Source: an uncultured Acidobacteriota bacterium
Lineage (GTDB): Bacteria > Acidobacteriota > UBA6911
DNA: 64,000 nucleotides
Assembly (NCBI GenBank): GCA_963827655.1
Contig: CAWHCF010000010.1
Span: 85,503-149,502, forward strand
Direction of reading: 5' to 3'
The position numbers were made by a program, and so were the translations under genes. This document shows, piece after piece, positions 11,038 to 57,462 of this stretch (the stretch's first letter is position 1; each line of letters opens with the position of its first letter). The notes beneath the pieces are model-generated. The model had not been told where the DNA came from. It did not search any database and was given only the letters and a program-made list of their open reading frames with translations.

Positions 11038-11050
11038 ATCCTTCTTTGAG

Positions 11051-14791: not shown

Positions 14792-14804
14792 ACGATTCTT
14801 TGAG

Positions 14805-14860
14805 TCTTCGCGTCTTCGTGGTCAGCGCGTGAAAACAAGCGCACCACGAAGACGCGAAGA
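14805..14860. repeat. Conserved 18-bp-stem hairpin 3' of TBDR copy 2 (second copy of the 11051 element)
   Basis: Arms are identical to 11051..11106, and the loop differs at only a few positions. Confidence 0.6.
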
Positions 14861-14900
14861 AAGAACCCTTTCGTTAAGCTCGGTTTCGTTGGGCGGTCGC

Positions 14901-16938: not shown

Positions 16939-16959
16939 ACCAACTCCTAAGTAATCGCT

Positions 16960-17125
16960 GGTTAAGGATTTATAGATTCTATGCTCCCTGACTGGGCCGC
17001 CGGAGCATTGAAGGCAGCGTCCAGCGCCCCTCCGGGGCGCGTCTCTTTCGTGTCTGTGACCGGGGGCAGGCGCTCCGCTGGCCCCCGGCTAATTTCCTTC
17101 GCCCTTTCAGGGCGCGAGCTGGCGT
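16960..17125. repeat. Copy 3 (partial) of a dispersed ~200 bp non-coding repeat family (see 39880 and 43795)
   Basis: The segment ggatttatagat...ggagcattgaaggcagcgtccagcgcccctc...gggcgcgtctctttcg...ggctaatttccttcgccctttcagggcg aligns to 43850..44010 with high identity. Confidence 0.55.
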
Positions 17126-17142
17126 AACCACTCGTTCAGACC

Positions 17143-27508: not shown

Positions 27509-28770
27509 ATGAAAGCGAAGTTCAAGTACGCTCCGATTCTCTCGACCCTGCTGGTTGTCGTGGTTGCTGGACGCGGGGCATTCGCCGAGGACATTCGCGG
27601 AGCGATCGCAGCGACCAAGATTATAGCGGAGGACAGTCGGTTGGTGGGCGATGTGACTTGTAGCGTTATAGACAATCCCTGTATCGCGTTAGTCGCCTCC
27701 GGGATCAAGCTGTCGCTCAATGGATTCACGATCACGGGTCCCGCTAATCCGGACGATTCTGCCACCTGTAATCCGGGTGGAGGTCCGCCGCCCGCGGACC
27801 TCATAAATATCGCCAACCTGACGGATGTGCAAATCCTCGGTCCCGGTCTGGTACAGCGAGCTCGTAGAAACGGAATCTACATCGGGGGGGCGGCCAACAC
27901 GAGAATTACAGTGAAGCAAGTGACACTGCATCACAACTGTGGAAGCGGTATCATGACCGCCAACATGTGGGACAGCATCATCGAGGGAAATACTTCGATC
28001 AGGAATGCGATGAACTCTGGTGCAGCTCCACGTGGAGGCCATACGCTTCTCGACAGCAACAATAATCACGTTCGGAGGAACCAATTCAGCGGCAACGGCT
28101 CGGTCTGTCCGACTCCTGCTTGCACCGCTGCTGCCGCGACAGCAGCTTCCAATAACGACTTCGGCGTGGGTCTCATCGGCACCAGCAGTGGCAATCTGAT
28201 CGAATCGAACAGCATCACCGGGAATACAAATGGGGTACTCGTCGAAGTGGGTGCCGCCGGTAATGTTGTCCGCCAGAACAGCATTGCCGGGAACCCTCCC
28301 AGTCAGATCTCGCGAGATTACGGTCCGATCGGATTCGACATAATGGACCAATCGGCAACCAACGGCGCCCGCAACATGATCGAAAGCAACCAGTGTATTT
28401 CGTATTCTGGCCCCGGACCGAGTCCTTGTCCCAACTTGCCAGCGGGCGATGTAACGACGATACTGACCGCCGCGAACGCGCCGAGCGCCACGGGTGTGTC
28501 TTTCGCTTCAAGTGCGGTGAACGCCGGCGGCTCATTCACGGCCACATTCTCGGGCAGCAATCTCAGTGCGACTACGTACTTCGATGTGAGATTCCGGATG
28601 CCAGGATCGACGACAGATCTCATAGCGCTGAATTGGCAGCGGGGAACATCCGCGCCACACGTTTTGGCCGTTGGCACATCGGCGGGCAGGATGGATTGTC
28701 ACCGGTGTGCGGGCACATACGGACTCCGGCGATGCAGCTGGTCCATTTACTCAGGTTTCTGCGACGCTAA
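27509..28770 (+). CDS. Secreted right-handed parallel beta-helix repeat protein (pectate-lyase/NosD-like) with a C-terminal ~60-aa module shared with the neighbouring esterase; probable frameshift near 28665 (the tracked ORF reads through to 29287)
   Basis: RBS GGAAAGGAG is followed by ATG 27509 and signal peptide MKAKFKYAPILSTLLVVVVAGRGAFA. Repeated N-x-I/V-x-x-N motifs are typical of PbH1 repeats. After ...SAPHV, an alternate frame continues the homology (FGRWHIGGQDG...) to a stop at 28770, just before a strong terminator hairpin. Confidence 0.5.
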
Positions 28771-28828
28771 GCGTGGTCCCATAAGTTGGATTGAGAACCG
28801 TCGCAAGTCGTCAAAAAGTAGAAAGTTG

Positions 28829-28875
28829 AAAGTGCTGAGTCCAAAGGCTTTCAACTCAGCACTCAGCACTTTTTA
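28829..28875. terminator. Rho-independent-like terminator hairpin between convergent genes (12-bp stem AAAGTGCTGAGT/ACTCAGCACTTT followed by TTTTT)
   Basis: A perfect inverted repeat with a T-run on the + strand, read directly from the sequence. It sits between the beta-helix gene and the minus-strand carboxylesterase. Confidence 0.6.
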
Positions 28876-37875: not shown

Positions 37876-39675
37876 TCAACTCCCAGCGCGGACGACCATC
37901 AGTAGAAGCTCGTGCACCGTAATGGTAGCACCCAGCCGGCCACGCACGACCGGTGTCGCCTTGAGGCGCACGGTCGCAGGCAGCCTGGTCTCGGCCGCAT
38001 CGGGGCGCGCCACGAACAGCATCGTCGCGGTGCGGGCGACCGGCCGGTAGCGCTCCTTTTTGCCTTCGTCGATGACACCCGGACGTTCGGGCTCGACCTC
38101 GGTGGCCGGGAGCGCATCGACGCCGGCGGGCAGCCCTTCGACCGTGAGGGCGACCTCTCCATCATATCCTTCTTCCTGCTCAGTCAATACCGTGACCTTC
38201 TTCGCCTGGCCAGGCTCGAGGTTCAGCCGATCGGCCTCGCGTCCCCGTCTCACGTTGCCATCGGTGAGGGGCTGGAAACCGAGTCCCGCCTCCACCCTTC
38301 CCATATGGGGCAACTGTCGCCGCACCAGAACGCGGTAGCGGAAGTCCGGGCCGCCGTGGCGTGCGGTGACCTCTTCGATGCGCAAGCGATACTCGCCGCC
38401 CCGCTCGAAGCTCGCGGTGACTTTGGGTTCGATCGTCTTCTCGATGAATTCGCCGCTTCCCTGGACATAGGCGTATACGTTGTTGACCAGTTCACGGCCG
38501 CCCGCGTCGACGACCGCAACGCGCGGCGTGAAGAGCGGCGCCGGCCGCTCGGAGGTCTCGATTTCGAAGGCCAGCCGGGCACCGTCGGTGATACCGAAGC
38601 GGAACCAGTCGACGTCTCCCGGCCGGTCGATAGCGCCCTCGATGAGCGATGGCACTGCGGATTCGAGCGCCTCCTGCTCGCCGTCGTTCGGTTCCCGCTC
38701 CGGAATCCGGACGAGCGCGGGTCTCTCCGCGTCGGACGGCGCCTCTTTCGCCGGTGGAGCCGCGACGGTCCGCGAAGCGACGAGGTCGAGCCGGTCCAGA
38801 TCCAGACGGCGAGTGAAGCTCCGCTCGTCCCATCGTCCAGGGTTCGGATGCGCCAGGAGCGGATCCGAGAAGCAAGGCGCCGCTGGTAGTGCGACCCGCA
38901 GCAAGTAACAGTAGTCCGGGCCTCCGCGCCCGAGGAAGCTCGCCACTGACACGACGTAACGACCCGACTTTGCGAACCGGTGGGTCAAGTTCGGGTTCCT
39001 GTTGCGCGACGCGGTGTTCGACTCGTCAATATGGGCCAGGCTGCGCCAGCGCTGCGGATCGAACCAGCTGCCGGCCGGCTCGTAGATCGTAATCTGCGCG
39101 TCCAGGCGATCGGCCGCGACCACCTCGAACCGGAGCTCCTGTTGAGCGGCTGCCTCGAACACGTAGGAGTCGACCTCGCCGTCCTGCGCGATCCGGCCGC
39201 TGACGGCCGCCGGAACGCTGAGGCGGAGCGCCCTGAGATTCGCTTCCTGGGTTAACTGTGCCTCTTCGCCCGCCGGGTCGTCATGGACCACGAACGAGAC
39301 GGCGTTCGACACTCCACGCGGCGACACCACGCGGACCGAGTGGACACCGAGGGCGGCTCCCGGAGCGAGCGCGAGCTCCGTGACAACCCGGTACGTCTTC
39401 GGTCGTTGCTTTTTGACATCCGAAGTTTCGACCGCCGGCAACTCCTCAACCGCGCGGATTGTCCCCTGCAGTTCAGGACAGTCCGTCCAGAGGGCATAAG
39501 CTCCTTCCAGGGCCTGGCCTCGAATCTCGCACTGGGCGGCACCGCCACGGCGAGCCCCGAGCGGTGCTATCGACGAGAGCTGGGGCTCCGGCGCCGGCGT
39601 CTGCGCTACCACGCAGATGCCTGACATGGCGAGGAGCGGCAGCAAGAGAAGGGTCGTCGCGAGCTTCATAATCAA
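37876..39675 (-). CDS. Secreted hypothetical protein with pre-peptidase-C-terminal-like beta-sandwich domains; first gene of the DUF1549/1553-DUF1501 operon
   Basis: 599 aa with signal peptide MIMKLATTLLLLPLLAMSG. Repeated G.VD.YVF/WFRF segments resemble PPC domains. Only a 4-nt gap separates it from the next gene. Confidence 0.45.
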   Translation of the reverse strand: MIMKLATTLLLLPLLAMSGICVVAQTPAPEPQLSSIAPLGARRGGAAQCEIRGQALEGAYALWTDCPELQGTIRAVEELPAVETSDVKKQRPKTYRVVTELALAPGAALGVHSVRVVSPRGVSNAVSFVVHDDPAGEEAQLTQEANLRALRLSVPAAVSGRIAQDGEVDSYVFEAAAQQELRFEVVAADRLDAQITIYEPAGSWFDPQRWRSLAHIDESNTASRNRNPNLTHRFAKSGRYVVSVASFLGRGGPDYCYLLRVALPAAPCFSDPLLAHPNPGRWDERSFTRRLDLDRLDLVASRTVAAPPAKEAPSDAERPALVRIPEREPNDGEQEALESAVPSLIEGAIDRPGDVDWFRFGITDGARLAFEIETSERPAPLFTPRVAVVDAGGRELVNNVYAYVQGSGEFIEKTIEPKVTASFERGGEYRLRIEEVTARHGGPDFRYRVLVRRQLPHMGRVEAGLGFQPLTDGNVRRGREADRLNLEPGQAKKVTVLTEQEEGYDGEVALTVEGLPAGVDALPATEVEPERPGVIDEGKKERYRPVARTATMLFVARPDAAETRLPATVRLKATPVVRGRLGATITVHELLLMVVRAGS

Positions 39676-39879
39676 GGCTACATCGTACCCCGAAACACTA
39701 CGCCATGCGACTGCTTCTTTGGAGTGGCAAGCAAGCGTAGCACCTGGAGCTTGTAAATTGGGGCGTCCGATTTCCTAGGATGGATTGTCCGACCGGCGCA
39801 CAGAGTTCAACGCGCGGCCCGAAGGAGCCGGTTCAGCAATTCGGTAAGTAACGTAATTTGGGCAGAGTGGTCGGAGTTG

Positions 39880-40060
39880 GCCTTGGCACCTCGCCCGGAG
39901 GAGCCGGACGGAAATTCAGCGCACGGCGCCAAGCGAAGCGCAGCCTGGGGTTTGGAGCGTATTATAGTCTGTTGCGCACAAGGAGCGCAGTGGCATTGAC
40001 CAGGCACGTCCAGGCCTCCGGTGGCGACGTGTCTTCGCCCGTGAGTGACGGGGGCAGGGA
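39880..40060. repeat. Copy 1 of a dispersed ~200 bp non-coding repeat family, located just 3' of TBDR copy 3
   Basis: Anchors shared with 43795..44020: gacggaaatt.agc...caagcgaagcgcag.c.ggggtttg...attata.gtc...gcattga...cgtccag...cgtgtcttcgcc. Confidence 0.5.
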
Positions 40061-40272
40061 AAACCTCTAGCCCTCGCTAAGTTCTTTCGTGCACTCTGGG
40101 GGCCGCGAGCTTGGCGTACCCGTTCGTAATGGACCGATGCGAGTGCTTGTAACGGTCCAGAGCTTACGCACTACCGGCCCTTGGGTCTGGCGAAGCTTGC
40201 TTCGCCATCTCGTCGTCAGAAGTTTACGGTCAGCCCAGCTTTTTCCGCGCGAGATCCTCCAGGCGTACTTGC

Positions 40273-43200
40273 CTAGAACACAAATTTCATTCCCAGCTGC
40301 ATCGAGCGCGCCGACCCCGCTGAGAAGATCTTGCCTGTATCCGAAACACCGATGGTCGTGTTGGGATTGTTCAGATTCACATGATTGGGCATGTTGAACA
40401 TCTCCCAGCGGAACTGCAGGAACTTGGTCTCTCTGATGTAAAAGTTCTTGGTCAAGCTCGTGTCGAGTACATGGATGCCCGGACCGTCGATAAGGCCGAT
40501 CCCGGAGCTGCCGAATGTGTAGAGCGGAGGGGCCGCCAGCGCCTGAGGATTAAACCAGAGACTGGCGCTCGGGTTGTCGACTTCGAGCTCCCCAACCTGG
40601 TTTGGACGTGTGTTCCTTCCGTTGCCAAGCGTAGCTCCCGGCGTGGTGAAACTCAGCGGCGATCCCGAAGTGAAATTGTAGATGCCAGCCAGCTGCCAGC
40701 CTCCGAGTATCCCGTTAACCACTGGATGGGCGTCACTCAGGAATTTCCTTCCCCTTCCAAAAGGCAGCTCATATATGCCGTTAATGGCCAGTATATGGGT
40801 GCGATCAAACGTCGAACGACCCCGATCATAGCCTTCCGGACCAAACGGCGTCGTTCCCGGGAAGTCATCAATGTGCTTGGAAAAGGCATAGGAAAGCAGG
40901 TACGAGAGCCCGTCGCCAAACCGTTTTTCCCATTTCAACTGAGCCGAGTTGTAATAGGAGTCGCCAATGTTGTCGTAGATGGTGACCTCTCCAAACTTTG
41001 GCCAGGGCTTGGCAGCTTGCAGATCTGTATACAACCCCGGTCGTACTTCGTTAAAAGTGGGAGAGCCGAATACATCGGCAGTACGGTTCCCAACGTACGA
41101 GACCGTCACCGCAGAATCACCCGGCATGGTCTTTTGAATTGACACGTTCCACTGGTGCGACTTGTTACTCACGATATCCACGCCGGGCGCGACCACGGAC
41201 GGCGTCACAAAGGATTGTGGATTCTCCGGCCACGCGTTTTCCCAACGCTGCAACGAGGAAGCGCTCCAGCCTGTCGATTCAAAAGTCCAGTAGGGCGGTC
41301 CAATGATCGACGATGCCGTTCGATTGCCGCTAAAGCTGCTGGTAAAGATGCCATACCCGGCCCGCACGACCAGGCCGCTGCTTCCGCCCGGGCGCCAGGC
41401 TATGCCCAAGCGCGGCGAGAAGTAGCCATTGGCTTTGAACAAGCCCGCCGGGGCGTCGGCCTGCGAAGCCGGGATCCAGAGATCTTTCGTGGCCTCGGCC
41501 AGGAATGGAGCAACCGGCTGCGAAGTCAAATCAACCCGGCCATCCTTGTCCTCGCCCGCGATCGACTTTCCAAGCTTCACATCGAAAGTGGCTACGTTCC
41601 CGCGCACTGCTGCCTTGTCATGCCAGTAGTCCCAGCGGAGTCCCAGATTGACAGTCAAGTTCGGTGAGACGTGCCAGAAGTCCTGAACATACAGCGCGGA
41701 ATAAGGGGAGTTTGCCATGCCAAAAGTCTGAATGGGGTAGTTTCTCGCGGAATTCTGTACCAGGCCCAACAAGTAATCGGCAAAGCCGTCACCCGTGTAC
41801 TGACCGTTAAAAGTAAACGTGCCTCTGGAACAGCAAGAACCATGCCGGCCATAGGTGGTGCGGTTATTGTATTCATAGCCGAGGTTCAGTGAATGCGGCC
41901 CCCGAACCATGTTCACACTGGCCTTTCCGCTCTGCGACTCGAACCACAAGCGTCCTGGTGTTCCCCAGGGAGCGCCAAACCCCTCGTATCCGGTAAAACC
42001 GACTGTCGGTAAACCAATCATCTCCTCTCTTCCGGGTGATGGAAATCCCTGAATCCCAGCCTGCTCGGTGAGGTTTTCTGTTCCCGCCACCGGCGTGGTG
42101 AAAAGATTGAGCGAGCGAAGATAATTGGCTCCCACGGTGAAAAGCGTCGTTGAAGTCATGGCATAAGTGTAATTGAGGCCGACATTCTGCTGCTTGGTAC
42201 TGTTGTCCTGGGTAACATCCGGCCGGTATTGAGGCAAGATCGTGCGCAAAGTCGTTGATGACGTACCGCCCGTAGATTCTCTGTTTGTCTGTGAGTTGCT
42301 GGTCGACCCGAACCATGATTTCGTCGGTATCGCTTGGCTGCGAAGCGACCGCCCGGAAGCGGCCATCCGCCGAATTCGGCTGCAGAATATAGGGGAAAAA
42401 GAATTTCGCGGAGCTGACGATCCGATCCGCCGGAATGATATTGCCAGGAAAGGGCTGTCCGGTCAGAGGGTCTCGGATCTGTCTGCTCGATGACGAGAAA
42501 TTCCCTTGAAAGAACGCAGTCGGAACCGGAGTCGAATTGTAGATTCTCTCCTGCCGGATCCGGGTGCCCTCGTAACTGGTAAAGAAGAAGGTCTTGTCTC
42601 TGATGATCGGGCCGCCAATGCTGTAGCCGAATTGATTTCGAATAAGCTTCGGCTTGCTGGCGCCCGGTGATTTGGCGAACGTATTGAATGCGTCCAGCTT
42701 GTGGTTTCGGTGAAACTCCCACAATGTGCCATGAAACGCATTCGAGCCTGACCTGGTTACCGACAGTACCTGAAGCGCGTTCCGGCCATGTTCGGCGCTG
42801 AAATTGGCCGTCTCGACGTTGAACTCGGCGATCGTGTCTACATTCGGGATCCCGAATCCGCCTTCATCCATTCCAGCATTTGCGTTCAGCCCATCGACCT
42901 GGAATTCGGTACCGCCTCCATCGCCCGTCCGGTTACCCAGGCCCTGAACCGTGATGCCTCTCTCCGGGCCCCCCTGTCCCAGATACCTCATGCCGGGAAT
43001 CAGTCTGACCAGTTCAACCGGATTCCTCCCGTTAAGTGGCAAATCAGCAATCAGTTTCGAGGCGATCGTTGCTTCCACCGATCCTTTTTCAGTCTGAATA
43101 ATCTCAGCTTGCGCCTCGATCGTGATCTTTTCCGTAATCGCCCCAACATCCAGAACCGGTGACAGCCGCTTCCGTTCACCCAGAGTCAATTCCACCCTCT

Positions 43201-43490
43201 CCAGACAGCCACGTCTTGAAGCCCGTAAGCGACGCGGCAACGGAGTAGAATCCTCTCGGCAGAGCCAGCACCTCAAAGTTCCCGCCGGAATCGGTAACCA
43301 CCATTTTCTTCAAGTTGGTGTCAACATTCGTCACGGTCACTTCCGCTCCGGCGATGACGGCGCCCGATGAGTCTTTGACGACGCCCAGTATGGCGCCTTC
43401 GGTTCCGACCTGGGCTAGCAGCGTGGAATTGGCCGCGAAAACCAGCAGCGATACTCCTAATCCCAATCGCAGAACTAACTGCTTTCTCAT
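40273..43490 (-). pseudogene. TonB-dependent receptor (CarboxypepD_reg-like N-domain + plug + barrel), copy 3, disrupted by at least 2 frameshifts (fragments 43176..43583, 41873..43276, 40273..42366)
   Basis: N-terminal fragment: MRKQLVLRLGLGVSLLVFAANSTLLAQ followed by a Cna-B-like domain (EGAILGVVKDSSGAVIAGAEVTVTNVDTN). Middle fragment: plug and early-barrel motifs (ITVQGLGN, NFHGTLWEFHRN). C-terminal fragment ends with the TonB C-terminal Phe (..QLGMKFVF). Confidence 0.65.
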
Positions 43491-43794
43491 GCAAGTCTCC
43501 TCGCTCAGTTCATTCAACCGGGTCCACTCGAGCCATTTGTGGACAGCCGCCCCTCGACTGTTGAATGGGTAGATGTCTCCCATGCAGTCTTTGCCAGAAC
43601 GTCCTCCGTATAAATCGTCTGATTATTGGAGTCAAGCGCAAATTCAAAGTTCGTCCAGAATGTCTCCTGTAGAACTCGAATCCGACAGGGGTGATCAGGG
43701 GTGCGGAAGCACCCCTGGAGTTTGGCCATTTCACGGGTCGACCTTGGAGTGCGGTAGCTTGCTCTGAACCTTACACGCATCTCGATCGGTCTTG

Positions 43795-44020
43795 GGGATT
43801 TCGCCCCAGAGGGGCGACGGCAAATTAGCCCCGGGCAAGCGAAGCGCAGTCCGGGGTTTGCGGGATTATAAGTCCAAGGCGCCCTGGAGGGGCGCAGGAG
43901 CATTGAGGGCAAGCGTCCAGCGCCCCTCGCACGGGCGCGTCTCTTTGCTGGTGTAGCCCGGGCGGCAGCGCTTCGCCTGGCCCGGCTTAATTTCCTTCGC
44001 CCTGTTCAGGGCAAAGGCGG
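43795..44020. repeat. Copy 2 (longest) of the dispersed ~200 bp repeat family, located just 5' of TBDR copy 3, in the divergent promoter region shared with the S9 peptidase gene
   Basis: Aligns over its 5' half with 39880..40060 and over its 3' half with 16960..17125. All three copies are in the same orientation. Confidence 0.55.
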
Positions 44021-44252
44021 CCCTGGAGTCCCGCGCCGACAGCTTTGTCACATGCGGCTCCTGCTCGCTAACCGCCGCGCTGCACGCGGATGCCGAACCG
44101 GAAACTCACGCAAATTTCGCAACCTGGGGCGCTTCCCACATGGTAAAGTCCACCGTACTTGAGCGGGCGGTGGTGAACCTGCCCGGCGCGACAGATAACT
44201 TCCCGGAGCTGAACGCCGGGCGCGAGTTCGGTCGCTCGTCCCCATTCTTTCC

Positions 44253-46301
44253 ATGTTTCTCGGAGATTATCGTACGGCTTTGAGAGGAAACCGCAAAAAC
44301 GGCTCGGCACTTCGATTGCTTCTAGTTGCCGCCTGCCTGTTTGCCGCTCTGGCGGCGCCGGCCGCCGAGAAGCCCTGGACAGTCGATGCGCTGATGCGCA
44401 TCAAGACAGTGGCCGATCCCCAGATCAGTCCGGATGGGGCCCGAATCGCCTACGTGGTGCGCTCGGCAAACTTTGAGCGGAACGCGTACGACTCGGAAAT
44501 CTGGATAGCGCCGGCCGACGGAGGCAGGCCACAGCGGATTACCCAGCCTCACACCTCCGACGACCTGCCACGCTGGTCGCGCGACGGTCGCCTCGCCTTC
44601 GTCTCGCGCCGTAACGGCGCGGCCCAGATCTACATCCTCCAAAAAAACGGGGGCGTACGCCAACTGACGAGTTCGCCGACGGCCGTGACCTCCTTCAAAT
44701 GGTCGCCAGACAGCAGCAGCATTGCGTACATGGCCGTCGATCCGATCCCGGCGGACGAGCAGGCGCTTCAGCGCCGCGGCAGCGATCCGGTGGTTGCGGA
44801 CCGGGTCTACCGCTACACGCGCATCTATGTGACTCGCGTGACGGACCTGCCCGCTGGACCGGCGCGGCTGCTGACGCGCGCGGATCGGCACGTCCTCTCG
44901 TTCGATTGGTCCCCGGACGGCGCCAGGATCGTCTACGCCGGGCAGGCTACACCGAGGAATCGGGACGCCTTCAACGTGGACCTGCATGAGATCGAGGTGG
45001 CGACGGGCCGCGACAGCGCGCTCGTGGAGCAGCCGGGCCGCGACGGCAACCCGAGCTATTCGCCGGACGGGCGCCTGGTTGCCTTCCACTCTCAGGCCGG
45101 TACAAACAACTACTTCGAGGCTCGTCACATAGGCATCGCTCGCTCCGGAGGGAGCGCCGTCCGGTATGTAACCGAGAAGCTCGATATCGACGTCTTTCGC
45201 GGCGGCAACGAGTTTTCGTGGTCCGGCGATGGGCGCCAGCTCATTTTCGGCGGAGGCAAGGGTACGCACGATGAACTGGTCGCTCTGGATTTGGAGGCGC
45301 TCACGTTGACGCGCCTGGTCACGGCGGTGGCCGGACCGTCAAGCTTCAGCGCGAGTGGCGACGGGCAGCGCATCGCGTTTCTGCGCGCGAGTCCCACGGC
45401 CCCGCCGGAGGTTTGGCTTCTCGACCGGCGGCACGTAAAGCCCGAAGAGCGTCAGATCTCGCGCGTGAACCCGCAGATCTCAGAATACTCGAGTTTCCAA
45501 ACCCGGACCCTGGGCTGGAAGTCGAAGGACGGCCTCCAGATCGAGGGAGTTCTCCGACTCCCGGTCGGATACGGATCCGGGGCGCGCGTACCATTGCTGG
45601 TCGAGCTTCACGGCGGTCCCACCGGTGTGGCGCTCGAGGATTACCCCGTTCCCCGGACCTATCCGACCCAGCTCTACCTCCAGGCCGGTTTCGCCGTGCT
45701 GGCTCCGAACTTCCGGGGCAGCTCGAACTATGGCGCGTCCCTGCGTCTTGCCAACATCAAGTCGCAGGGTTTCGGAGACATGGACGATGTAATGGCCGGG
45801 ATCGATCACCTCGTCGCGCAGGGCATCGCCGATCCGGACCGCCTGGGTGTCATGGGCTGGAGCTATGGGGGATTCCTCAGCATCTGGATCGTGAGTCACT
45901 CGCAGCGGTTCAAGGCAGCTTCGATTGGCGCCCCGACGACCGATTGGATCTCATGGTATGGCGAGAGCGACGGCGCGAAAGAAGTTCTTTGGACCTACTT
46001 CGGGGGCAAGCCGTGGGACAACTGGCAGACCTACAACCGGCATTCACCCCGCTACTCGCTCATCGACGTGAAGACACCGTCACTGCTGCTCCATGGCGAG
46101 AAGGACATCGACAGCACACCGGAAATCTTCTACGCGCTGACGGACCTTCAGGTGCCGGTGGAGTTCGTCACCTATCCGCGCGAGGGGCACGGCATCGGGG
46201 AGCCTTGGCACCAGCGCGACCTGCTCGAGCGGAACCTGGGCTGGTTCCAGCGCTGGATGGGGGGGGCCGATCCCCTCTTTCGACGATCCTCAGGAAAATG
46301 A
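44253..46301 (+). CDS. S9-family serine peptidase (prolyl oligopeptidase / acylaminoacyl-peptidase type) with N-terminal beta-propeller
   Basis: PD40-like repeats (SPDG.RIAYV, SRDGR, SPDGR). The C-terminal a/b-hydrolase carries GWSYGG (nucleophile elbow), then D (..GEKDID) and H (..EGHGI), the catalytic triad order of S9. Confidence 0.7.
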   Translation: MFLGDYRTALRGNRKNGSALRLLLVAACLFAALAAPAAEKPWTVDALMRIKTVADPQISPDGARIAYVVRSANFERNAYDSEIWIAPADGGRPQRITQPHTSDDLPRWSRDGRLAFVSRRNGAAQIYILQKNGGVRQLTSSPTAVTSFKWSPDSSSIAYMAVDPIPADEQALQRRGSDPVVADRVYRYTRIYVTRVTDLPAGPARLLTRADRHVLSFDWSPDGARIVYAGQATPRNRDAFNVDLHEIEVATGRDSALVEQPGRDGNPSYSPDGRLVAFHSQAGTNNYFEARHIGIARSGGSAVRYVTEKLDIDVFRGGNEFSWSGDGRQLIFGGGKGTHDELVALDLEALTLTRLVTAVAGPSSFSASGDGQRIAFLRASPTAPPEVWLLDRRHVKPEERQISRVNPQISEYSSFQTRTLGWKSKDGLQIEGVLRLPVGYGSGARVPLLVELHGGPTGVALEDYPVPRTYPTQLYLQAGFAVLAPNFRGSSNYGASLRLANIKSQGFGDMDDVMAGIDHLVAQGIADPDRLGVMGWSYGGFLSIWIVSHSQRFKAASIGAPTTDWISWYGESDGAKEVLWTYFGGKPWDNWQTYNRHSPRYSLIDVKTPSLLLHGEKDIDSTPEIFYALTDLQVPVEFVTYPREGHGIGEPWHQRDLLERNLGWFQRWMGGADPLFRRSSGK

Positions 46302-46468
46302 GGCTGAAAGTTGACCGAATTCCGCCAGTCTCTCCAAGCTCCTGTTCCTGTTTCTTCGACGCTCTAACCACGAAGACGCCAAGACCTGAGAAATTGAATC
46401 GAAGTTGACCCGCCCACGCCTGCTGAATTACAGTCGAGACTACTGATCCGTACAACGGAGGTAACTGA

Positions 46469-49525: not shown

Positions 49526-49624
49526 TGCACTCTGAGCCTCGCGTTTGACTCAACTCGAAATCGAGCACTCCTCCCCGGGGATCCGCAGCTTAATCGCCAA
49601 GAGGCGACGACACCAGAGTTTAAG

Positions 49625-52600
49625 ATGAGATCCCGAACTTTCTTGATTCTTTTGCTTGGCATCCATGCTCCGCTCGGGGCGCAGGAGGCCGCGCGCGTGG
49701 AGCTCTTTTCCCCTCAGGGGACGGTCAAGCAGGTGCGCCAGGCGCGGGCGCGCTTTTCAGAGCCCATGGTCCCCTTCGCTGATCCAAGGGCCGCCGCCCA
49801 ACCTTTTGTGATTGACTGCGCCGAGAAGGGAACCGGCCGTTGGGTCGACGCCAGAAACTGGGTCTACGACTTTGAAAGGGACCTCCCCGCCGGTGTCCGG
49901 TGCGAGTTCAGGATTCAGGACAGCCTGAGAACCGTTAGCGGCAGGACTCTGGGCGGGGAGCAAAGATTCGCGTTTTCAACGGGCGGACCGGCCATCATCG
50001 CGTCGTTCCCGCCTGAAGGCTCAGAACGCATTGACGAAGCGCAGATCTTCGTCCTTGAACTCGACGGTGAAGCTACCGAAAGCTCTGTTCTCGCCAGTGT
50101 GCGGTTCGATGTGGAAGGACTGGCCGAGCGCATCGGAGCGCGGATAGTGTCGGGGACCGAGCGCGAGCAGATACTCAAGACCTCCCACTATCGTTACCGA
50201 AAACCGCTTCCCCCGCTCCTTTTAATCCAGGCCCGGCAGCGATTCCCCGCCGGATCTGCAGTCACGCTGATCTGGGGCAAAGGAGTGGCCGCGGCCAGCG
50301 GCGTCGCTACCGAATCGGACCTCACCCGAGCCTTTGTCACACGAACTCCATTCACTGCCAGTCTCAACTGCCCGCGGGAAAATCCCGACGCCGACTGCAT
50401 ACCCATAACTCCGGCGCGCCTGACATTCTCCGCGCCGGTCGCGGCCTCCGAAGCCCGGAAGGCAGTGGTAAGGGGCCCGGGGAACCGCCGCTGGCTCGCC
50501 GAGATTGCCGAGTCTGAAAAGGATGATCCGTACGTTCACGCAGTCTTCTTCAAGGGCCCTTTTCCGGAGCGTGCCGCCTTTACGCTCGAGATTCCTGCGG
50601 GCCTCAAGGACGACTCCGGACGAAACCTGACCAATTCGGATAAGTTCCCGCTTTCGTTTCGCACCGATGCCTATCCTTCGCTGGCGAAGTTTGCGGCCGA
50701 CTTTGGAATTGTGGAGGCAAAGCCGAGGGCGCTGCTTCCGGTCACGCTCAGGAATGTCGAGCCGTCAGTTTCCGCTCGAGCGTTTGAGGTCCTGGGCGGG
50801 GAAGAGAACACCGATCCACCCGCTCCCGCCCGGCCGGACGAAGACATGGCTGCAAAGTTGAGAGGCAGGATCTTCCGGGTTCCGCCCGACAGGGCCGGTC
50901 AGATGCTCGACTGGATCAAGAAGGTATCCGGCCGCGGCTGGGAGGATCGGGAAAAGTCGGTCTTCGGGCCCGTAACGGCCGCGAAAACCAAGCCGTTCAC
51001 CGTCCCGAAACTCCATGGCCCGAAAGCCTTCGAAGTCGTCGGCATTCCATTGCCGAAGCCCGGGTTTTACGTGGTCGAAATCGAGAGCGGGATCCTTGGA
51101 GCCGCCCTGCTCGGCGCCGCCAAGCCGATGTTCGTGCCCACCGCGGTTCTGGCCACGAACCTCTCGGTCCATTTCAAGTGGGGGCTCGAATCGTCGCTCG
51201 TCTGGGTAACGGCGCTCGACACCGGCAAACCGGTAAGCCAGGCCGCAATCGTGATCCGCGACTGTGGCGGAAAGCCGCTCTGGGAAGGACAATCCGACCG
51301 GGACGGCATTGCCCGCGTCCAGACGGTTCCTCCGCGCGGCACCTCGCAGCAATGCGGCGATTATCCCCTGGAAGGCGGCCTGCTCGTCAGCGCGCAGCTC
51401 GGGGACGACATGGCTTTCGTCCACACCAGCTGGAACGACGGCATCGAACCGTGGCGTTTTCAGCTTCCGACTGAATACGAGACCAGCCTGGTCGCGGCAC
51501 ACACAATCTTTGACCGAACCCTGCTACGTGCCGGCGAGACTGTGCACATGAAGCATATCCTGCGCCGGCATGTCAGTTCCGGCTTTTCAAGAGTGCCTGA
51601 AAATGAACGACCGGGCGCCGTCATCATGACCCATTGGGGGAGCGATCAGAAGTATGAATTCCCCCTTCGATGGGATCCGGCAGGGATCGCCGAGACCGCC
51701 TGGAAAATTCCGAACGAGGCCAGGCTGGGAAACTATCAGGTGACCCTTGCAACCAACGGGCGCGCGGGCCATCACTCCGGGGAATTCCGAGTCGAGGAGT
51801 ATCGCGTGCCCCTGATGAAAGGGGCGATTCAGACGCCTTCGCGGATGCTGGTCGCGCCAGCTTCAGTGCCACTCGACCTTACGGTCAGTTACCTGGCAGG
51901 GGGAGCCGCCGGCAATCTTCCCGTGAGGCTGCGCCATGTCGTCCAACCGAGAGCTGCGACGGTCTTCCCGGCGTTTGACGACTTCCATTTCTCGAATGGA
52001 AAACTAAAGGAGGGCCTGATTCGTCACGGGGCGGAGGAGGGAGAGCCTCAAGAACGGAAGCCTTTTGAGCTGAACAGCACCGATCTCACTCTCGACAGGC
52101 AAGGCTCGGCACGGACGGTGATATCAGAACTGCCCGGGCTCGAGAAGCCGATGGAGATTCTGGCCGAACTCGAGTTCCGCGATCCCAATGGCGAGACCCA
52201 GACGGTTTCGTCCCGTATCCCGCTCTACCCCGCTGATCGTCTCGTCGGCATCAAGCCGGCTTCGTGGTTAACTTCCGAGCAGTCGGCGCTCCGGTTCCAG
52301 GTTGCGGTGGTCGATTTGAGCGGCAATCCGATCGCCGGGGCCCCTGTGCGGGTTGATTTATTCGAACGAAAGACATATTCCCATCGGAAACGCCTGGTCG
52401 GAGGATTCTACGCGTTCGAACACGCCACCGAGACGCGACGGGTCGGCGGCCTGTGTGAGGGAAAGACCGACCAGCGCGGGTTGCTCCTCTGTGACAAGCG
52501 GTCGCCCATTTCCGGAAACTTGATTCTCCAGGCCACCACAGCTGACAGCGCCGGCCGCGAAACCACCGCCAACCGCGATATCTGGGTTGCCGGCAAAGAA

Positions 52601-55267
52601 GATTGGTGGTTTGCCGCGCGCGACAGCGACCGCATCGATGTCATCCCGGAGATGAAAAGCTACGAGCCTGGAGACAAAGCGCGATTCCAGGTGCGGATGC
52701 CCTTCAGGCGCGCCACAGCCCTCGTCACCGTGGAACGCGAGGGGATCGCGGATGTGTTCGTGCGCGAGCTTCAGGGAAGAGAGCCGATCGTCGAAGTCCC
52801 GGTGAAGGGAAATTTCGCCCCCAACGTCTTTGTTTCTGTCCTCGCGGTTCGAGGTCGGGTCGGAGGCGTGCAGCCGACGGCCACGGTTGACCTGGGGCGT
52901 CCGGCCTACAAACTGGGGATCGCGGAGATCCGGGTCGGCTGGAAAGCTCACGAGCTTAAAGTGAAGGTCTCGACCGATCGTCCGGTCTACAGAGTGCGGG
53001 AAAAGGCCAGGGTGGATATCGCGGTCACGACGCCCGAAGGGACCGCTCCGCCGGCAGGGACGGAGGTTGCCCTTGCTGCCGTCGATGAAGGCCTGCTGGA
53101 GCTGCAGCCCAACGCCAGCTGGCAGCTCATCGACGCCATGATGCGCCGGCGCGGCTGCGGCGTCGAAACTTCAACGGCCCAGATGCACGTCATCGGAAAG
53201 CGGCACTTCGGGCTGAAGGCACTCCCGCAGGGGGGCGGGGGAGGCAAGCAGGCGACGCGCGAGCTTTTCGATACGCTGCTTTTATGGAGAGGGCGTGTCC
53301 CGCTCGACGGGCAAGGACGGGCCTCCGTTGAGGTCCCGTTGAACGACTCTTTGACCGGTTTTCGCATCGTCGCCGTAGCCACGGGAGGCACGGATCGCTT
53401 CGGCACCGGATCGACTTCGATCCGCTCCACGCAGGAGCTCATGATCTTGTCGGGAATCGCGCCCGTAGTTCGCCAGGGTGACCAGTTCCGCGCCACGTTC
53501 ACCGTGCGCAACGCCACCGAGCGTCCGCGAGACGCGACGGTTTCCACGCGGGTCAAGGGAATTGCCGAGCCGCTCCAGCCCACGACCGTCGCACTTGCGC
53601 CCGGAGAGGCGCGAGAGATCGCCTGGACGGTAACCGCTCCCGCTACGGTCGATTCGCTCACCTACGAAGTTGAGGCCAAAGGCGCGGAGGGCGTCACGGA
53701 TCGCCTGAGCGTCTCCCAGAGAGTCGTTCCTGCCGTTCCGGTTCGCCCCTTTCAGTCCGTCCTGATTCCAGTCGAGGGGGAAGTGCTGATGGACCTGGAG
53801 CGCCCCAACGACGCGCTTCCCGGGCGAGGCGGCATCCTGGTATCGCTGCAGCCTACTCTGCTTGATGGCCTCAAGGGCGTAACCGACTACATGCGCAGCT
53901 ATCCCTATACCTGCCTGGAGCAGGAAATCTCGCGCGCCGTTGCGCTGCGGGATCGGGAACGGTGGAACAGGCTCATGGCTCAGCTCCCTGCGTACCTCGA
54001 CTCGAATGGTCTTGCAAAATACTTCCCGTCGAACCCCAGGGGCAGCGACGTTTTGACTTCATATATCCTCGCCATTGCCGGCGAGGCCGGTTGGCAGATG
54101 CCGGATCAACCCAGGAACGCGATGACGCGAGGGCTGCAGGGCTTCGTCGAGGGTCGAGTCATTCTTCACTCCCCGGTTTCGGCGGCCGACCTGGCGCTTC
54201 GCAAACTCTCGGCGCTGAATGCGCTCTCTCGCTGGGAGAAAGTCGAACCTGCCTTGCTCTCGGCGATCACCGTCGAGCCGAACCTCTGGCCTACCTCGGC
54301 TGTGATCGACTGGTTCGACATCATCCAGAGGGTTTCAGGAATCCGTAACGGGAGCGACCGGCTCCGGGAAGCCGACCAGATCCTCAGATCGAGGCTCAGC
54401 TTTCAGGGGACCACGATGGGTTTTTCCACGGAACGAAGCGATTTCCTCTGGTGGCTCATGGTCTCAAACGACACCAATGCGGTGCGATTGCTGCTCTCGG
54501 TGGCCGGCGCCGACTCCTGGCGCGAAGACCTTCCCAGGTTGGCCAGGGGATCTCTGGCGCGCCAGCGGCGAGGATCCTGGGATACGACGGTGGCAAACGC
54601 GTGGGGCGTTCTGGCGCTGGAGAAGTTTTCCAAGGCTCTGGAAAAAACTTCAGTCACAGGCTCGACCTCCGTAACACTGAACACGACCCAGACGATCGAC
54701 TGGAATGAAACGCCCGCAGGGAAAGCGGTCTCATTCCCTTGGCCCGCCCAGCGAAGCCCGCTTTCGATCCGGACTTCCGGCGCCGGAAGGCCGTGGGCCA
54801 CAGTGCAGAGCCTCGCGGCCATTCCGCTCAAGCAGCCTCTGACGAGCGGGTTCAAGCTCCGCAAGACCCTGACGGCAGTCGAGCAAAGACGACCAGGCGT
54901 CTGGAGTCGAGGGGACGTCCTAAGAGTAAGGATCGAGCTCGAAGCTTCGTCCGACATGACCTGGGTGGTGGTGAGCGATCCGATTCCGGGCGGTGGCGCG
55001 ATCCTCGGGACCGGACTCGGACGGGACTCGCAGCTGCTAACGCGCGGCGAGGAGCGCAAGGGGTGGGTGTGGCCGGTTTTCGAAGAGCGCTCTGCCGAAG
55101 CCTTCCGCGCCTACTACGAGTACGTTCCAAAAGGGGAGTGGACCGTGGAGTACACCCTTCGATTGAACAACGAGGGGCTGTTTTCGATTCCCGCCACTCG
55201 GGTCGAGGCGATGTACGCTCCGGAAATGTTCGGAGAGACCCCGAACGAGGCCATGCGCATCCAATGA
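49625..55267 (+). CDS. Alpha-2-macroglobulin family protein (bacterial YfhM-type, thioester-containing)
   Basis: 1880 aa with a signal peptide. The thioester motif CLEQ is present within ..MRSYPYTCLEQEISRAVAL. The domain order matches MG-domain/A2M/thioester/receptor-binding, and it is translationally coupled (ATGA overlap) to PBP1C. Confidence 0.8.
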   Translation: MRSRTFLILLLGIHAPLGAQEAARVELFSPQGTVKQVRQARARFSEPMVPFADPRAAAQPFVIDCAEKGTGRWVDARNWVYDFERDLPAGVRCEFRIQDSLRTVSGRTLGGEQRFAFSTGGPAIIASFPPEGSERIDEAQIFVLELDGEATESSVLASVRFDVEGLAERIGARIVSGTEREQILKTSHYRYRKPLPPLLLIQARQRFPAGSAVTLIWGKGVAAASGVATESDLTRAFVTRTPFTASLNCPRENPDADCIPITPARLTFSAPVAASEARKAVVRGPGNRRWLAEIAESEKDDPYVHAVFFKGPFPERAAFTLEIPAGLKDDSGRNLTNSDKFPLSFRTDAYPSLAKFAADFGIVEAKPRALLPVTLRNVEPSVSARAFEVLGGEENTDPPAPARPDEDMAAKLRGRIFRVPPDRAGQMLDWIKKVSGRGWEDREKSVFGPVTAAKTKPFTVPKLHGPKAFEVVGIPLPKPGFYVVEIESGILGAALLGAAKPMFVPTAVLATNLSVHFKWGLESSLVWVTALDTGKPVSQAAIVIRDCGGKPLWEGQSDRDGIARVQTVPPRGTSQQCGDYPLEGGLLVSAQLGDDMAFVHTSWNDGIEPWRFQLPTEYETSLVAAHTIFDRTLLRAGETVHMKHILRRHVSSGFSRVPENERPGAVIMTHWGSDQKYEFPLRWDPAGIAETAWKIPNEARLGNYQVTLATNGRAGHHSGEFRVEEYRVPLMKGAIQTPSRMLVAPASVPLDLTVSYLAGGAAGNLPVRLRHVVQPRAATVFPAFDDFHFSNGKLKEGLIRHGAEEGEPQERKPFELNSTDLTLDRQGSARTVISELPGLEKPMEILAELEFRDPNGETQTVSSRIPLYPADRLVGIKPASWLTSEQSALRFQVAVVDLSGNPIAGAPVRVDLFERKTYSHRKRLVGGFYAFEHATETRRVGGLCEGKTDQRGLLLCDKRSPISGNLILQATTADSAGRETTANRDIWVAGKEDWWFAARDSDRIDVIPEMKSYEPGDKARFQVRMPFRRATALVTVEREGIADVFVRELQGREPIVEVPVKGNFAPNVFVSVLAVRGRVGGVQPTATVDLGRPAYKLGIAEIRVGWKAHELKVKVSTDRPVYRVREKARVDIAVTTPEGTAPPAGTEVALAAVDEGLLELQPNASWQLIDAMMRRRGCGVETSTAQMHVIGKRHFGLKALPQGGGGGKQATRELFDTLLLWRGRVPLDGQGRASVEVPLNDSLTGFRIVAVATGGTDRFGTGSTSIRSTQELMILSGIAPVVRQGDQFRATFTVRNATERPRDATVSTRVKGIAEPLQPTTVALAPGEAREIAWTVTAPATVDSLTYEVEAKGAEGVTDRLSVSQRVVPAVPVRPFQSVLIPVEGEVLMDLERPNDALPGRGGILVSLQPTLLDGLKGVTDYMRSYPYTCLEQEISRAVALRDRERWNRLMAQLPAYLDSNGLAKYFPSNPRGSDVLTSYILAIAGEAGWQMPDQPRNAMTRGLQGFVEGRVILHSPVSAADLALRKLSALNALSRWEKVEPALLSAITVEPNLWPTSAVIDWFDIIQRVSGIRNGSDRLREADQILRSRLSFQGTTMGFSTERSDFLWWLMVSNDTNAVRLLLSVAGADSWREDLPRLARGSLARQRRGSWDTTVANAWGVLALEKFSKALEKTSVTGSTSVTLNTTQTIDWNETPAGKAVSFPWPAQRSPLSIRTSGAGRPWATVQSLAAIPLKQPLTSGFKLRKTLTAVEQRRPGVWSRGDVLRVRIELEASSDMTWVVVSDPIPGGGAILGTGLGRDSQLLTRGEERKGWVWPVFEERSAEAFRAYYEYVPKGEWTVEYTLRLNNEGLFSIPATRVEAMYAPEMFGETPNEAMRIQ

Positions 55268-57414
55268 GAAGACCGCGCGTTCTCTTCGTCGTTGCCGCTG
55301 TCGCCGGCACGATCCTGCTGCTCTTGTTCGCCCTTTCCCGCTCCGTACCGATGCCTGCGTTTCAGGAAGTGCGCAGCGCCTACAGCGGGTCCGAGGCCAC
55401 CGTGCTGGACCGTCACCATCAGGTCATTCACCAGCTTCGAGTCAAGCATCAGGGCCGCCGCTTGGACTGGGTGGCGCTTTCGGAGATATCGCCTGCCTTT
55501 CGGTCCGCGCTGGTTCACGCCGAAGACCGAAGATTTCACACTCACCGGGGGGTCGACTGGATCTCGTTTGGCGGGGCGCTGGCCGGCAGCTTCAGGTCCG
55601 CCAGGAATCGGGGCGCCAGCACCATCACGATGCAGCTGGCCGCCATGCTCCACGAGCAGCTGCGCCCGCGAGGCCATGGCCGTTCCGTCGCCCAGAAATG
55701 GAATCAGATCCGGTCGGCGCTCAGTCTCGAGCGAAGCTGGTCCAAAAATGACATTCTGGAAGCCTACGTCAATCTGGTTACATTTCGCGGCGAGCTTCAG
55801 GGAATCGGTGCGGCGGCCAAGGGGCTTTTTGACAAGAGTCCCCATGGCCTGGATGACATCGAATCCATGATACTGGCGGCTCTGGTGCGCTCGCCGAACG
55901 CCGAGAGCGACGCGGTGACCCGAAGGGCAATCGCGCTCTCGGAGTCGATGGGCCTGCGCCTGGAGGCGGCCGAGATCGGGGTCAGGGCGAAGGCGGTTCT
56001 TTCGCGTCCTTACTTTGTCCAGCCTGAGGTTGCGCTCGCGCCCCACGTGGCGCTCCGGCTGGTCGGAATCAATCCGGGCGCAACGACAATCGTCTCGACG
56101 CTCGACCGCGATCTGCAGAGCTTCGCCCTTGGCGTTTTGCGTCACCACCTTCTCTCGCTTCGATCTCAGAATGTTGCCGACGCGGCTGCGCTCGTGGTCG
56201 ACAACCGCACAGGCGAGGTCCTGGCTTACGTCGGGAACGCCGGCGACCAGACAAGCGCGAAATACGTGGATGGGGTCGAGGCGCTCCGCCAGGCCGGCTC
56301 CACGCTGAAGCCGTTCGTTTACGCCACCGCTCTCGAGCGGCGTTACCTGACGGCCGCTTCCCTGATCGATGACAGCCCGGTCGACCTTCCAGTGCCGGGC
56401 GGAGTCTACCGGCCGATGAATTACGACCAGCGGTTCCATGGCCTTGTCACCGCGCGCGCCGCGCTGGCTTCGTCATTGAACGTGCCCGCGGTCAAGGCGC
56501 TCAACATGATCGGCGTCGAAGCCTTTGTCGAGCAGTTGCGTGCCCTCGGTTTCCGAAAACTTCGCTCCGCGGAATTCTACGGGCCCTCTCTTGCGCTGGG
56601 TTCGGCGGATGTTGCACTGTGGGATCTGGTGAACGCTTATCGCGCGCTTGCCAATGCCGGACGCGTCGGATCGATGCGTCTGACTTTCGACGACCCGGCA
56701 GGACCATCGAAACCGGCTTTCTCCCCTGAGGCGGCTTTCCTGGTCTCGCACATCCTGTCGGATCGGGAGAGTCGTAGCATGACGTTTCAGCTGGAGAGTC
56801 CTCTGGCCACCCGCTACTGGTCCGCCGTAAAGACCGGGACCAGCAAGGATATGCGCGACAACTGGTGCGTCGGCTACTCGAGCCAATACACGGTTGGGGT
56901 ATGGGCCGGCAACTTTTCGGGAGCGCCTATGTGGAACGTCACCGGCATCACGGGTGCGGCTCCCGTGTGGGTGGAGATCATGAACTGGCTCCACCGGGAC
57001 GGCTCGAGTCGCGAGCCGGAAGCGCCGCCGGGAGTTGTCTGCCGGGACGTAGAATTTTCCCATTCGGGACGAAGCCGCCGCGAGTGTTTCATCGAAGGAA
57101 CTGAAACGCCCGTGGTGCAAGAAACGGCCGCTTCGGTAAGGATCAAGATCGCATACCCGGCTTCAGGCACCGTGATTGCGCTCGACCCCGATATACCGGC
57201 GGCCCAGCAGAGGCTCTTTCTTGAAGCCGAACCCCGTGATGACCGCCTGCGCTGGGTACTTGACGGCGAAGTTCTGGGGTCCGCCGGGTCGCTGGTGTTG
57301 TGGATCCCGAAGGTCGGGCCGCATACGCTCGCGCTACAGGACAAAACCGGGCGGGTACTGGATTCCGTCGTGTTCCAGGTTCGCGGCCGTGTGAATCAAC
57401 TGGCTTCCAAGTAA
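55264..57414 (+). CDS. pbpC: Penicillin-binding protein 1C (bifunctional glycosyltransferase/transpeptidase)
   Basis: N-terminal TM (MRRPRVLFVVAAVAGTILLLLFAL). Transglycosylase motifs (EDRRFHTHRGVDWIS, RGASTITMQLA) and transpeptidase motifs (SxxK: GSTLKP; SxN; KTG: KTGTSKD) are present, followed by the C-terminal PBP1C-specific domain. The ORF track start at 54739 is inside the A2M gene. Confidence 0.8.
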   Translation: MRRPRVLFVVAAVAGTILLLLFALSRSVPMPAFQEVRSAYSGSEATVLDRHHQVIHQLRVKHQGRRLDWVALSEISPAFRSALVHAEDRRFHTHRGVDWISFGGALAGSFRSARNRGASTITMQLAAMLHEQLRPRGHGRSVAQKWNQIRSALSLERSWSKNDILEAYVNLVTFRGELQGIGAAAKGLFDKSPHGLDDIESMILAALVRSPNAESDAVTRRAIALSESMGLRLEAAEIGVRAKAVLSRPYFVQPEVALAPHVALRLVGINPGATTIVSTLDRDLQSFALGVLRHHLLSLRSQNVADAAALVVDNRTGEVLAYVGNAGDQTSAKYVDGVEALRQAGSTLKPFVYATALERRYLTAASLIDDSPVDLPVPGGVYRPMNYDQRFHGLVTARAALASSLNVPAVKALNMIGVEAFVEQLRALGFRKLRSAEFYGPSLALGSADVALWDLVNAYRALANAGRVGSMRLTFDDPAGPSKPAFSPEAAFLVSHILSDRESRSMTFQLESPLATRYWSAVKTGTSKDMRDNWCVGYSSQYTVGVWAGNFSGAPMWNVTGITGAAPVWVEIMNWLHRDGSSREPEAPPGVVCRDVEFSHSGRSRRECFIEGTETPVVQETAASVRIKIAYPASGTVIALDPDIPAAQQRLFLEAEPRDDRLRWVLDGEVLGSAGSLVLWIPKVGPHTLALQDKTGRVLDSVVFQVRGRVNQLASK

Positions 57415-57462
57415 GACGTCAAAATCGACCACCAAGGCCCAAGGACGCGAAGCATCACGAAA

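Follow-up and report, generated by a model that had tools for sequence, protein, structure and literature searches.

A 64-kb stretch of DNA from an uncultured member of the Acidobacteriota (positions 85,503 to 149,502 of contig CAWHCF010000010.1 in assembly GCA_963827655.1; termed here 'the window', and numbered from its first letter) carries three similar intergenic segments, designated copies A, B and C, the first two of which lie on either side of a gene for a TonB-dependent receptor (TBDR). These segments are quite probably the relics of a non-autonomous, palindromic element, similar in kind to a miniature inverted-repeat transposable element (MITE), copies of which have become scattered between the genes of a narrow acidobacterial lineage. 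The MITE-like family is previously uncatalogued; its best-preserved members are found outside the window, and a sister subfamily has left a direct record of transposition.

An initial annotation of the window had described the three segments as non-coding copies, in a common orientation, of a novel structured repeat of about 200 bp. Formal comparison confirms the similarity and extends the segments beyond the lengths first given: within the window, blastn aligns B with C at 82.8% identity over 128 nt (E 3e-23) and A with B at 70.4% identity over 125 nt (E 6e-6; the A-B identity ranges overall from 53 to 70%), with all three copies in the same (+) orientation. The sequence ‘anchors’ listed at that time are also present where none is expected by chance, with two matches to CAAGCGAAGCGCAGNCNGGGGTTTG and three to the series GCATTGA..CGTCCAG..CGTSTCTT. 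A profile hidden Markov model (HMM) of the family scores A at 170 bits (39837-40103), B at 227 bits (43743-44019) and C at 135 bits (16952-17122), and no fourth copy was detected in the 64 kb when this model, and the intact copy described below, were used as queries with all nhmmer filters turned off. The segments have likewise proved to be non-coding, as reading frames across them are interrupted or not conserved in six-frame translations, and the longest open reading frame (ORF) across B, of 90 aa, has no relative among 5.8 billion proteins.

The extent to which the window copies have decayed can be judged against an intact form of the element, found in an ENA contig of 124 kb (L143) that is ~96% identical in nucleotide sequence to the window and syntenic with its positions 25440-46264. 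In the same place and orientation as A (‘site A’), this contig carries a well-kept copy of 378 bp (L143 7137-7514; 235 bits to the family HMM) that forms a near-perfect palindrome, in which a terminal hairpin is followed by an inverted repeat of ~65 nt, by an arm composed of two hairpins and a GGAAATTAGCC linker, by a central hairpin, and then by a mirrored arm and terminus. The terminal hairpins are GCGGCAGCaaGCTGCCGC and GGCGAAGCttGCTTCGCC, the inverted ends are ~80% identical to one another, and the element as single-stranded DNA folds almost from end to end (z = -10.4). As the query of a single-sequence nhmmer search, it matches A at 39879-40205 (E 1e-30), B at 43751-44014 and C at 16962-17140. 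In terms of its 378 positions, B corresponds to 27-285, C to 134-310, and A to 63-377 together with a degenerate left part.

Measured against this yardstick, all three copies in the window are relics, since B and C are truncated (the latter on both sides, in agreement with its initial description as a partial copy) and A is structurally eroded. A retains a right terminal hairpin (GGCGAAGCTTGCTTCGCC, at 40189-40206) and 72% of the consensus base pairs, and has lost most of its structure, with a DNA fold z of -1.4 versus the value of -10.4 for the intact copy. B yields a long, imperfect hairpin whichever strand is folded (RNA fold z = -4.4 and -5.3). Its identity to copies on two metagenome contigs, L020 and L021, is 84% and 83% (over 244 and 260 nt, respectively), and that of C is 85% and 86%.

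The tips of the arm hairpins, and the terminal hairpins, contain the heptamers GCGAAGC or GCGGAGC (window 43840-43848, 43968-43976 and 40190-40206; L143 7137-7154 and 7497-7514), in every case on the strand whose 5'-to-3' direction leads into the element. These heptamers fit d(GCGNAGC), a motif of exceptionally stable DNA mini-hairpins (PMC13037366), and may represent repeated protein-binding sites. A second hairpin, GCGCGAAGCaaGCTTCGCG, which is nearly the same as the terminal hairpin of the element, is located ~75 nt to the left of the site-A element in L143 (7573-7588), and a degenerate version of it is found in the window at 39720-39750; this extra hairpin could be either a solo end or a site preferred as a target.

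Transposition itself is recorded in the sister subfamily, which is represented by elements of 278 and 279 bp (L018 and L022) that are 93% identical to one another and have the core and part of the ends in common with the longer form. The L143 copy matches both at E 1e-10, with the same modules in the same order. Both elements begin with GATACTGCTGGCAAAC and end with its inverted complement, GTTTGCCAGCAGTAT; the inverted ends extend over 20 perfect bp in L018 and over 18-19 bp in L022, and perfect 6-bp direct repeats flank each insertion (CCGAGC for L018 and AGTCCT for L022). When the L022 element and one of these repeats are removed in silico, the host DNA becomes a perfect palindrome with a 33-bp stem; because the partner arm of this host hairpin is intact, the uninterrupted target is still on record, and transposition is thereby shown for the sister subfamily. 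Staggered-cut insertion of this sort is the hallmark of a transposase at work, and a duplication of 6 bp suggests an enzyme of the DDE type.

The two insertions also have something to say about targets. That of L022 (1800-2330, minus strand) lies inside the host hairpin just described, and that of L018 (4780-5360, minus strand) has a 15-bp host inverted repeat beside it; such insertions in or next to long host palindromes hint at a preference of the sister subfamily for hairpin targets such as terminators. A candidate 7-bp target duplication at B, formed by its flanks CTTGGAG and CCTGGAG, was considered separately and rejected, as CTTGGAG aligns with positions inside the elements of L020, L021 and L143.

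Well-known bacterial MITEs include the Correia/NEMIS elements of Neisseria, the ERIC/IRU elements of enterobacteria and the RUP elements of Streptococcus pneumoniae. The acidobacterial elements are like them in being small, non-coding, intergenic and multi-copy, in having long inverted ends that fold the whole element as one hairpin, in generating a short target duplication (here in the sister subfamily), in having strain-polymorphic copies, and in decaying to truncated relics. They are unlike them in sequence, there being no similarity to the described MITEs among those testable; in the unusually elaborate internal plan, in which terminal hairpins enclose two double-hairpin arms with a central hairpin between them; and in the insertions seen in or beside host palindromes, with no parent insertion sequence identified. 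A published description of MITEs (PMC11602168) gives a size in prokaryotes of 50-800 bp, a non-coding sequence, terminal inverted repeats of at least 10-15 bp, target-site duplications of 2-10 bp, dispersed and polymorphic copies, and an autonomous partner. By comparison, the present elements measure 278-378 bp and are non-coding; inverted ends are found in L018, L022 and L143, in a decayed version in A, and without their outer portions in B and C; duplications, of 6 perfect bp, are found in L018 and L022 only; and the copies are dispersed over seven sites and polymorphic, with B absent both from L143 and from a second relative (L014, ~96% identical, with 13 kb compared).

Among the possibilities raised in the initial annotation, it is thus a MITE-like mobile repeat that the inverted ends, the 6-bp duplications, the empty site reconstructed in the sister subfamily, and the dispersal of copies in unrelated contexts support. 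The word ‘novel’ remains apt insofar as none of the Rfam families scores at or above its curated threshold in the window; the type of element is a known one.

A scan of metagenomes with a strict pattern for the arm returned five loci, all five of which are true members of the family; the metagenome copies come from three JGI samples, with L019 corresponding to the same locus as L022 in a different sample. The contigs L019 and L021 terminate inside the element, as expected of a repeat that breaks assemblies. The seven distinct sites adjoin unrelated genes and differ from one another in their flanks: the metagenome copies are adjacent to a tail-sheath-like gene, a DAO oxidoreductase, a P450, HTH/MarR regulators and a histidine kinase, and none is adjacent to a TBDR gene. 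Homologues of the proteins that flank the elements are annotated as Acidobacteriota. No copy was found in three more distant Acidobacteriota relatives (63 kb in all, with orthologous proteins 61-63% identical); four patterns returned nothing, or chance matches only, from viral contigs; the plasmid collection yielded no match; and a search of the genome collection for GCATTGA..CGTCCAG..CGTSTCTT produced 13 loci, none of them more than a chance match. The family looks lineage-restricted.

Comparison with two close relatives indicates how individual sites have changed. At site A, the L143 copy is 86-88% identical to C and to the copies of L020 and L021, and only 55-60% identical to A, its positional counterpart. 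The intergenic region that harbors A (window 39740-40220, compared with L143 ~7120-7600) is 48-77% identical between the two genomes, and the genes on both sides of it are 94-100% identical, a pattern that suggests allelic replacement or conversion rather than ordinary divergence. At site B, L143 has no copy. The variable slot that holds B in the window has a common right-hand break point (~44058-44064) and a left-hand one that abuts a conserved hairpin (43697-43716); in L143 (2370-3630) it is occupied by 1261 bp containing a DCD/dUTPase-like gene and two small ORFs, and in L014 (1-1014) its place is taken by 1014 bp or more that include a TPR gene, neither filler containing a copy of the element. 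The simplest reading of the replacement at site A, together with the three contents of the B slot, would be recombination or conversion between alleles or between copies. The DCD-like gene that stands in place of B in L143 was examined as a possible known defence gene and set aside, as its protein has no PADLOC match.

The conservation of structure was assessed in an alignment of seven sequences with 55 consensus pairs, which represents about three lineages. Paired cells account for 90.8% in the true register, versus 40-50% when the partners are slid; 11 of the 55 pairs have changed on both sides, versus 3-6 when slid; and none of 500 shuffles reached the observed structure values. The compensatory changes are situated in the local hairpins of both arms and in the central hairpin, and one pair-swap separates L018 from L022; with about three lineages in the alignment, the independent compensatory events are few. 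The structure is equally good on both strands, with alifold energies of -66.2 kcal/mol (+) and -64.0 kcal/mol (-) and with symmetric counts of G-U and A-C when the strands are treated alike, which is the behavior of a DNA palindrome and provides no evidence for a particular RNA. An apparent G-U asymmetry (21 versus 8 on the + strand) was discarded, as it disappears once the minus strand is analyzed likewise.

If A, B and C are relics of a MITE-like element, then a transposase encoded elsewhere would have recognized the element ends, the 6-bp duplication pointing to an enzyme of the DDE type. The copies in the window would have been inserted long ago and later truncated (B and C) or mutated (A), and the placement of A and B on both sides of the TBDR gene would be coincidental, with the elements neither regulating, delimiting nor moving that gene. 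The compensatory changes that keep the hairpins might reflect selection on the ends at the level of DNA, or correction templated by the palindrome.

Several observations weigh against this reading. No target-site duplication is demonstrable in the window's own subfamily (A, B, C, L143 and L020), and no transposase was found in the window, nor an autonomous partner in the viral and plasmid collections. The absence of B from L143 and L014 represents replacement by other genes, with no clean empty site. The copies seen number three in the 64 kb of the window, one in 22 kb of L143 and none in 13 kb of L014. The compensatory changes in local hairpins exceed what a plain transposon end needs. Finally, Acidobacteria encode RAYT-like ‘TIRYT’ tyrosine transposases whose genes lie between long inverted repeats, in part double-palindromic, that form repeat families (Di Nocera et al., PMC3733652); mobilization by such enzymes would be a different route.

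Those last points feed the first alternative, namely that the elements are REPIN-like doublets of a double hairpin of the repetitive extragenic palindromic (REP) type, copied not by a DDE enzyme but by an HUH/Y1 transposase of the RAYT/TIRYT kind that works on hairpins in single-stranded DNA. Each arm by itself makes up a double hairpin, and the pair of arms is inverted in the manner of REPINs, where pairs of hairpin units likewise form larger palindromes and where hairpins are kept by compensatory change; such changes have independently preserved the local hairpins in each arm here. Also in its favour are the long, partly double-palindromic inverted repeats to which the acidobacterial families are linked, the heptamers at loop tips and terminal hairpins with their fit to d(GCGNAGC) (PMC13037366), and the related Acido-Lenti-1 motif (discussed below), whose published seed includes dispersed single copies, tandem arrays and one pair that faces outward.

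We nevertheless regard this alternative as unlikely. Y1 transposases (IS200/IS605 and RAYT mechanisms) are not known to produce target duplications such as those of L018 and L022, which are perfect over 6 bp. REP and REPIN sequences are characterized by palindromic units of 20-40 bp, a GTAG or CGTC tag, a Y1 gene and the lack of a target duplication; the elements described here, at 278-378 bp and with arm units of ~55 nt, are far larger than REPINs (by a factor of three to four), no GTAG or CGTC tag was identified in an inspection by eye only, and no Y1 transposase gene was seen beside any copy.

Less likely again is an explanation at the level of RNA, in which the elements would constitute a structured non-coding RNA family (an extended relative of Acido-Lenti-1), or else a cis-acting element of untranslated regions that affects transcript stability or termination. 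Acido-Lenti-1 (RF01687), which is listed as a probable small RNA (sRNA) of unknown function (Weinberg et al. 2010, PMC2864571), is the closest known motif. Against its gathering score of 37 bits, searches in E-value mode gave sub-threshold scores for element arms of 32.5 and 26.6 bits in L022, 28.1 bits in L143, 26.5 bits in L020 and 24.2 bits in the right arm of C (the last with cmscan, E 0.0012), with E-values that span 8e-6 to 1e-3 in small search spaces; A and B produced no match at E up to 5. Both stems and the conserved GGCUA-type linker are matched in the cmscan alignments, and the nine best matches of a sequence-only HMM derived from the seed, across ~110 kb of the window and related loci, all fall on element arms (in C, at 17084-17113).

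The likeness is considerable in its details: each arm here has a hairpin of 8-9 bp, a ~12-nt GGCUAAUUU-type linker and a 5-bp hairpin with a UYC loop; the motif, too, is found in Acidobacteria in multiple copies that are not tied to particular genes; and one seed pair (wf3_AHAI13594_y1, 530-575 and 682-727) is arranged tail to tail like the two arms of the element. The differences are that the scores (24-32.5 bits) lie below gathering, that the loop of the first hairpin is much larger here and contains a GCG/CGC mini-stem of its own, and that the double hairpin is here only one part of a larger palindromic element (278-378 bp), which has additional inverted ends and, in the sister subfamily, is flanked by target duplications. 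As the arms fail the membership score of RF01687, the elements are not filed under Acido-Lenti-1.

Apart from this resemblance, an RNA could be argued from the conserved multi-hairpin structure with its compensatory changes, from a hairpin resembling a terminator, followed by a T-rich tail, on the + strand of B, C, L020 and L021 (the central hairpin of B being the sole terminator-like site within 39500-44400), and from an antisense orientation of the element relative to its neighbours at three of the three sites that have co-directional flanks (A, C and L018). The trend in orientation, however, has only those three informative sites; a broader rule, that the left end faces a gene start, fits seven of seven sites and was rejected, as divergent sites are uninformative and the three that count are not significant. 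No sigma-70-like promoter was found in the elements, no Rfam family matches at threshold, and both strands fold equally well, as a DNA palindrome would. Furthermore, B is dispensable (close relatives without it keep both neighbouring genes), A has lost most of its structure, and the genes next to the elements are mutually unrelated. With no association to a gene class, no strand asymmetry and a resemblance to Rfam that stays below threshold, the suggestion in the initial annotation of a small-RNA or cis-regulatory family lacks support, and any role as RNA would be at most a secondary, exapted one.

A more speculative proposal, which we consider improbable, would join these threads. The Acido-Lenti-1-type double hairpin (in Rfam, a candidate sRNA) would be the functional arm of hairpin-seeking mobile elements, whose d(GCGNAGC)-tipped hairpins would be recognized as folded DNA by a putative transposase, possibly an acidobacterial TIRYT-like enzyme that yet leaves 6-bp duplications; the replacement at site A would then represent active conversion or turnover and not passive decay. 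The sub-threshold link to Acido-Lenti-1 suggests that this ‘candidate sRNA’ may belong, as a module, to mobile DNA, and is the most interesting loose end of the analysis.

The proposal that the repeats are recombination sites that bracket and mobilize a TBDR cassette, which the initial annotation had extended to TBDR genes in repeat-delimited cassettes more generally, has next to no likelihood left: although A and B flank the gene as direct repeats, and the B slot is filled by different DNA in three closely related genomes, the cassette is ruled out by L143, in which the TBDR orthologue is in the same position and intact with a copy at site A only, and further contradicted by the low identity of A and B, by the other fillers of the B slot (which lack the element), by the absence of any integrase or recombinase nearby, and by the other family members, which are not beside TBDR genes.

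Besides disposing of the tempting idea of a repeat-bounded TBDR cassette, the analysis puts on record a mobile repeat family, not catalogued before, from uncultured Acidobacteria, in which transposition is cleanly proved by internal evidence. Repeats of this sort interrupt short-read assemblies, give rise to spurious ORFs and can pass for regulatory RNAs. The coordinates of the copies, of their modules and of neighbouring features are collected in Table 1.

Table 1. Positions, in window coordinates, of the element copies, their modules and associated features.
Feature	Position	Strand	Description
Copy A	~39815-40206	+	Full length, strongly decayed; an earlier span of 39880-40060 was too short. 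Lies between the start of a 599-aa ORF (39675, -) and the TBDR stop (40273), both genes on the minus strand
Copy B	43743-44021	+	Best kept of the window copies; both outer termini gone. Lies between divergent TBDR and S9 peptidase genes
Copy C	16952-17142	+	Central hairpin and right arm only; the left-hand cut lies next to the start of a DUF2442 gene (16938), the right-hand one at the PNP_UDP_1 stop (17143)
Left arm of B	43802-43856	-	Two hairpins, linker GGCAAATTAGCC, loop AAGCGAAGCGCAG; inverted counterpart of the right arm; helices 1, 4 and 5 of the covariation table
Central hairpin of B	43878-43938	none assigned	Stem GCGCCCCTCGCACGGGCGC then GTCTCTTT; helices 6 and 7 of the covariation table
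Right arm of B	43957-44013	+	Hairpin with loop GCGCTTCGC, linker GGCTTAATTTCCTT, short hairpin; helix 8
Right arm of C	17075-17114	+	Resembles Rfam RF01687 (Acido-Lenti-1)
Variable slot with B	43715-44064	none assigned	Defined by blastn break points, junction sequences and gene lists
TonB-dependent receptor gene	40273-43490	-	CarboxypepD_reg and OMP_b-brl_4 domains (Pfam); neighbour, not part of the elements
Single-base insertions in the window	25469, 25484, 26444, 26892, 27241, 28688, 28882, 28894, 29143, 29154, 34575, 42244, 43206, 43702		

The TBDR gene is frameshifted, as the initial annotation had noticed, by two +1 shifts that correspond to 1-nt insertions near 42244 and 43206. Its orthologue in L143 is intact (1071 aa, 97% nucleotide identity), and the window gene differs from it by exactly these two insertions. 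Across ~17 kb, the window has ~14 scattered 1-nt insertions relative to L143, versus 2-3 deletions, mostly outside homopolymers; given this excess, the frameshifts are probably assembly or consensus errors, and are flagged as such here and not read as biology. The same excess would explain the many split genes in the window (TBDRs, PNP_UDP_1, DUF1501 and a giant ORF).

Two further stretches of 100 nt, the only others in the 17 kb held in common with L143, fall below 85% identity: window 44160-44286, which lies just upstream of, and at, the annotated start of the S9 peptidase gene and contains a 17-nt insertion at 44270, and window 28736-28835, where a 26-nt insertion is located at 28787. A region of ~7.8 kb with very long ORFs of 1880 aa and 891 aa (window 49607-57439) is absent from the otherwise collinear L014, in which positions 49607 and 57439 are adjacent. 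Exact look-ups of the S9 peptidase, GNAT and DUF2442 proteins of the window found none on record. The rest of the window is ordinary chromosomal DNA, encoding GcpE, an amidohydrolase, an ECF sigma factor, a kinase, PSCyt2/PSD1/DUF1501 proteins and others.

The tandem array mentioned in the initial annotation is a duplication from 7440 to 14862 that repeats every ~3.76 kb at 79-92% identity and includes two TBDR-like genes. A separate short repeat, GTCTTCGCGTCTTCGTGGTTAG, which is unrelated to the palindromic element and has five matches in place of none expected, is present as an inverted pair close behind each TBDR copy of the tandem duplication (11050-11107 and 14804-14861), and occurs once more just downstream of the S9 peptidase gene (46364-46385).

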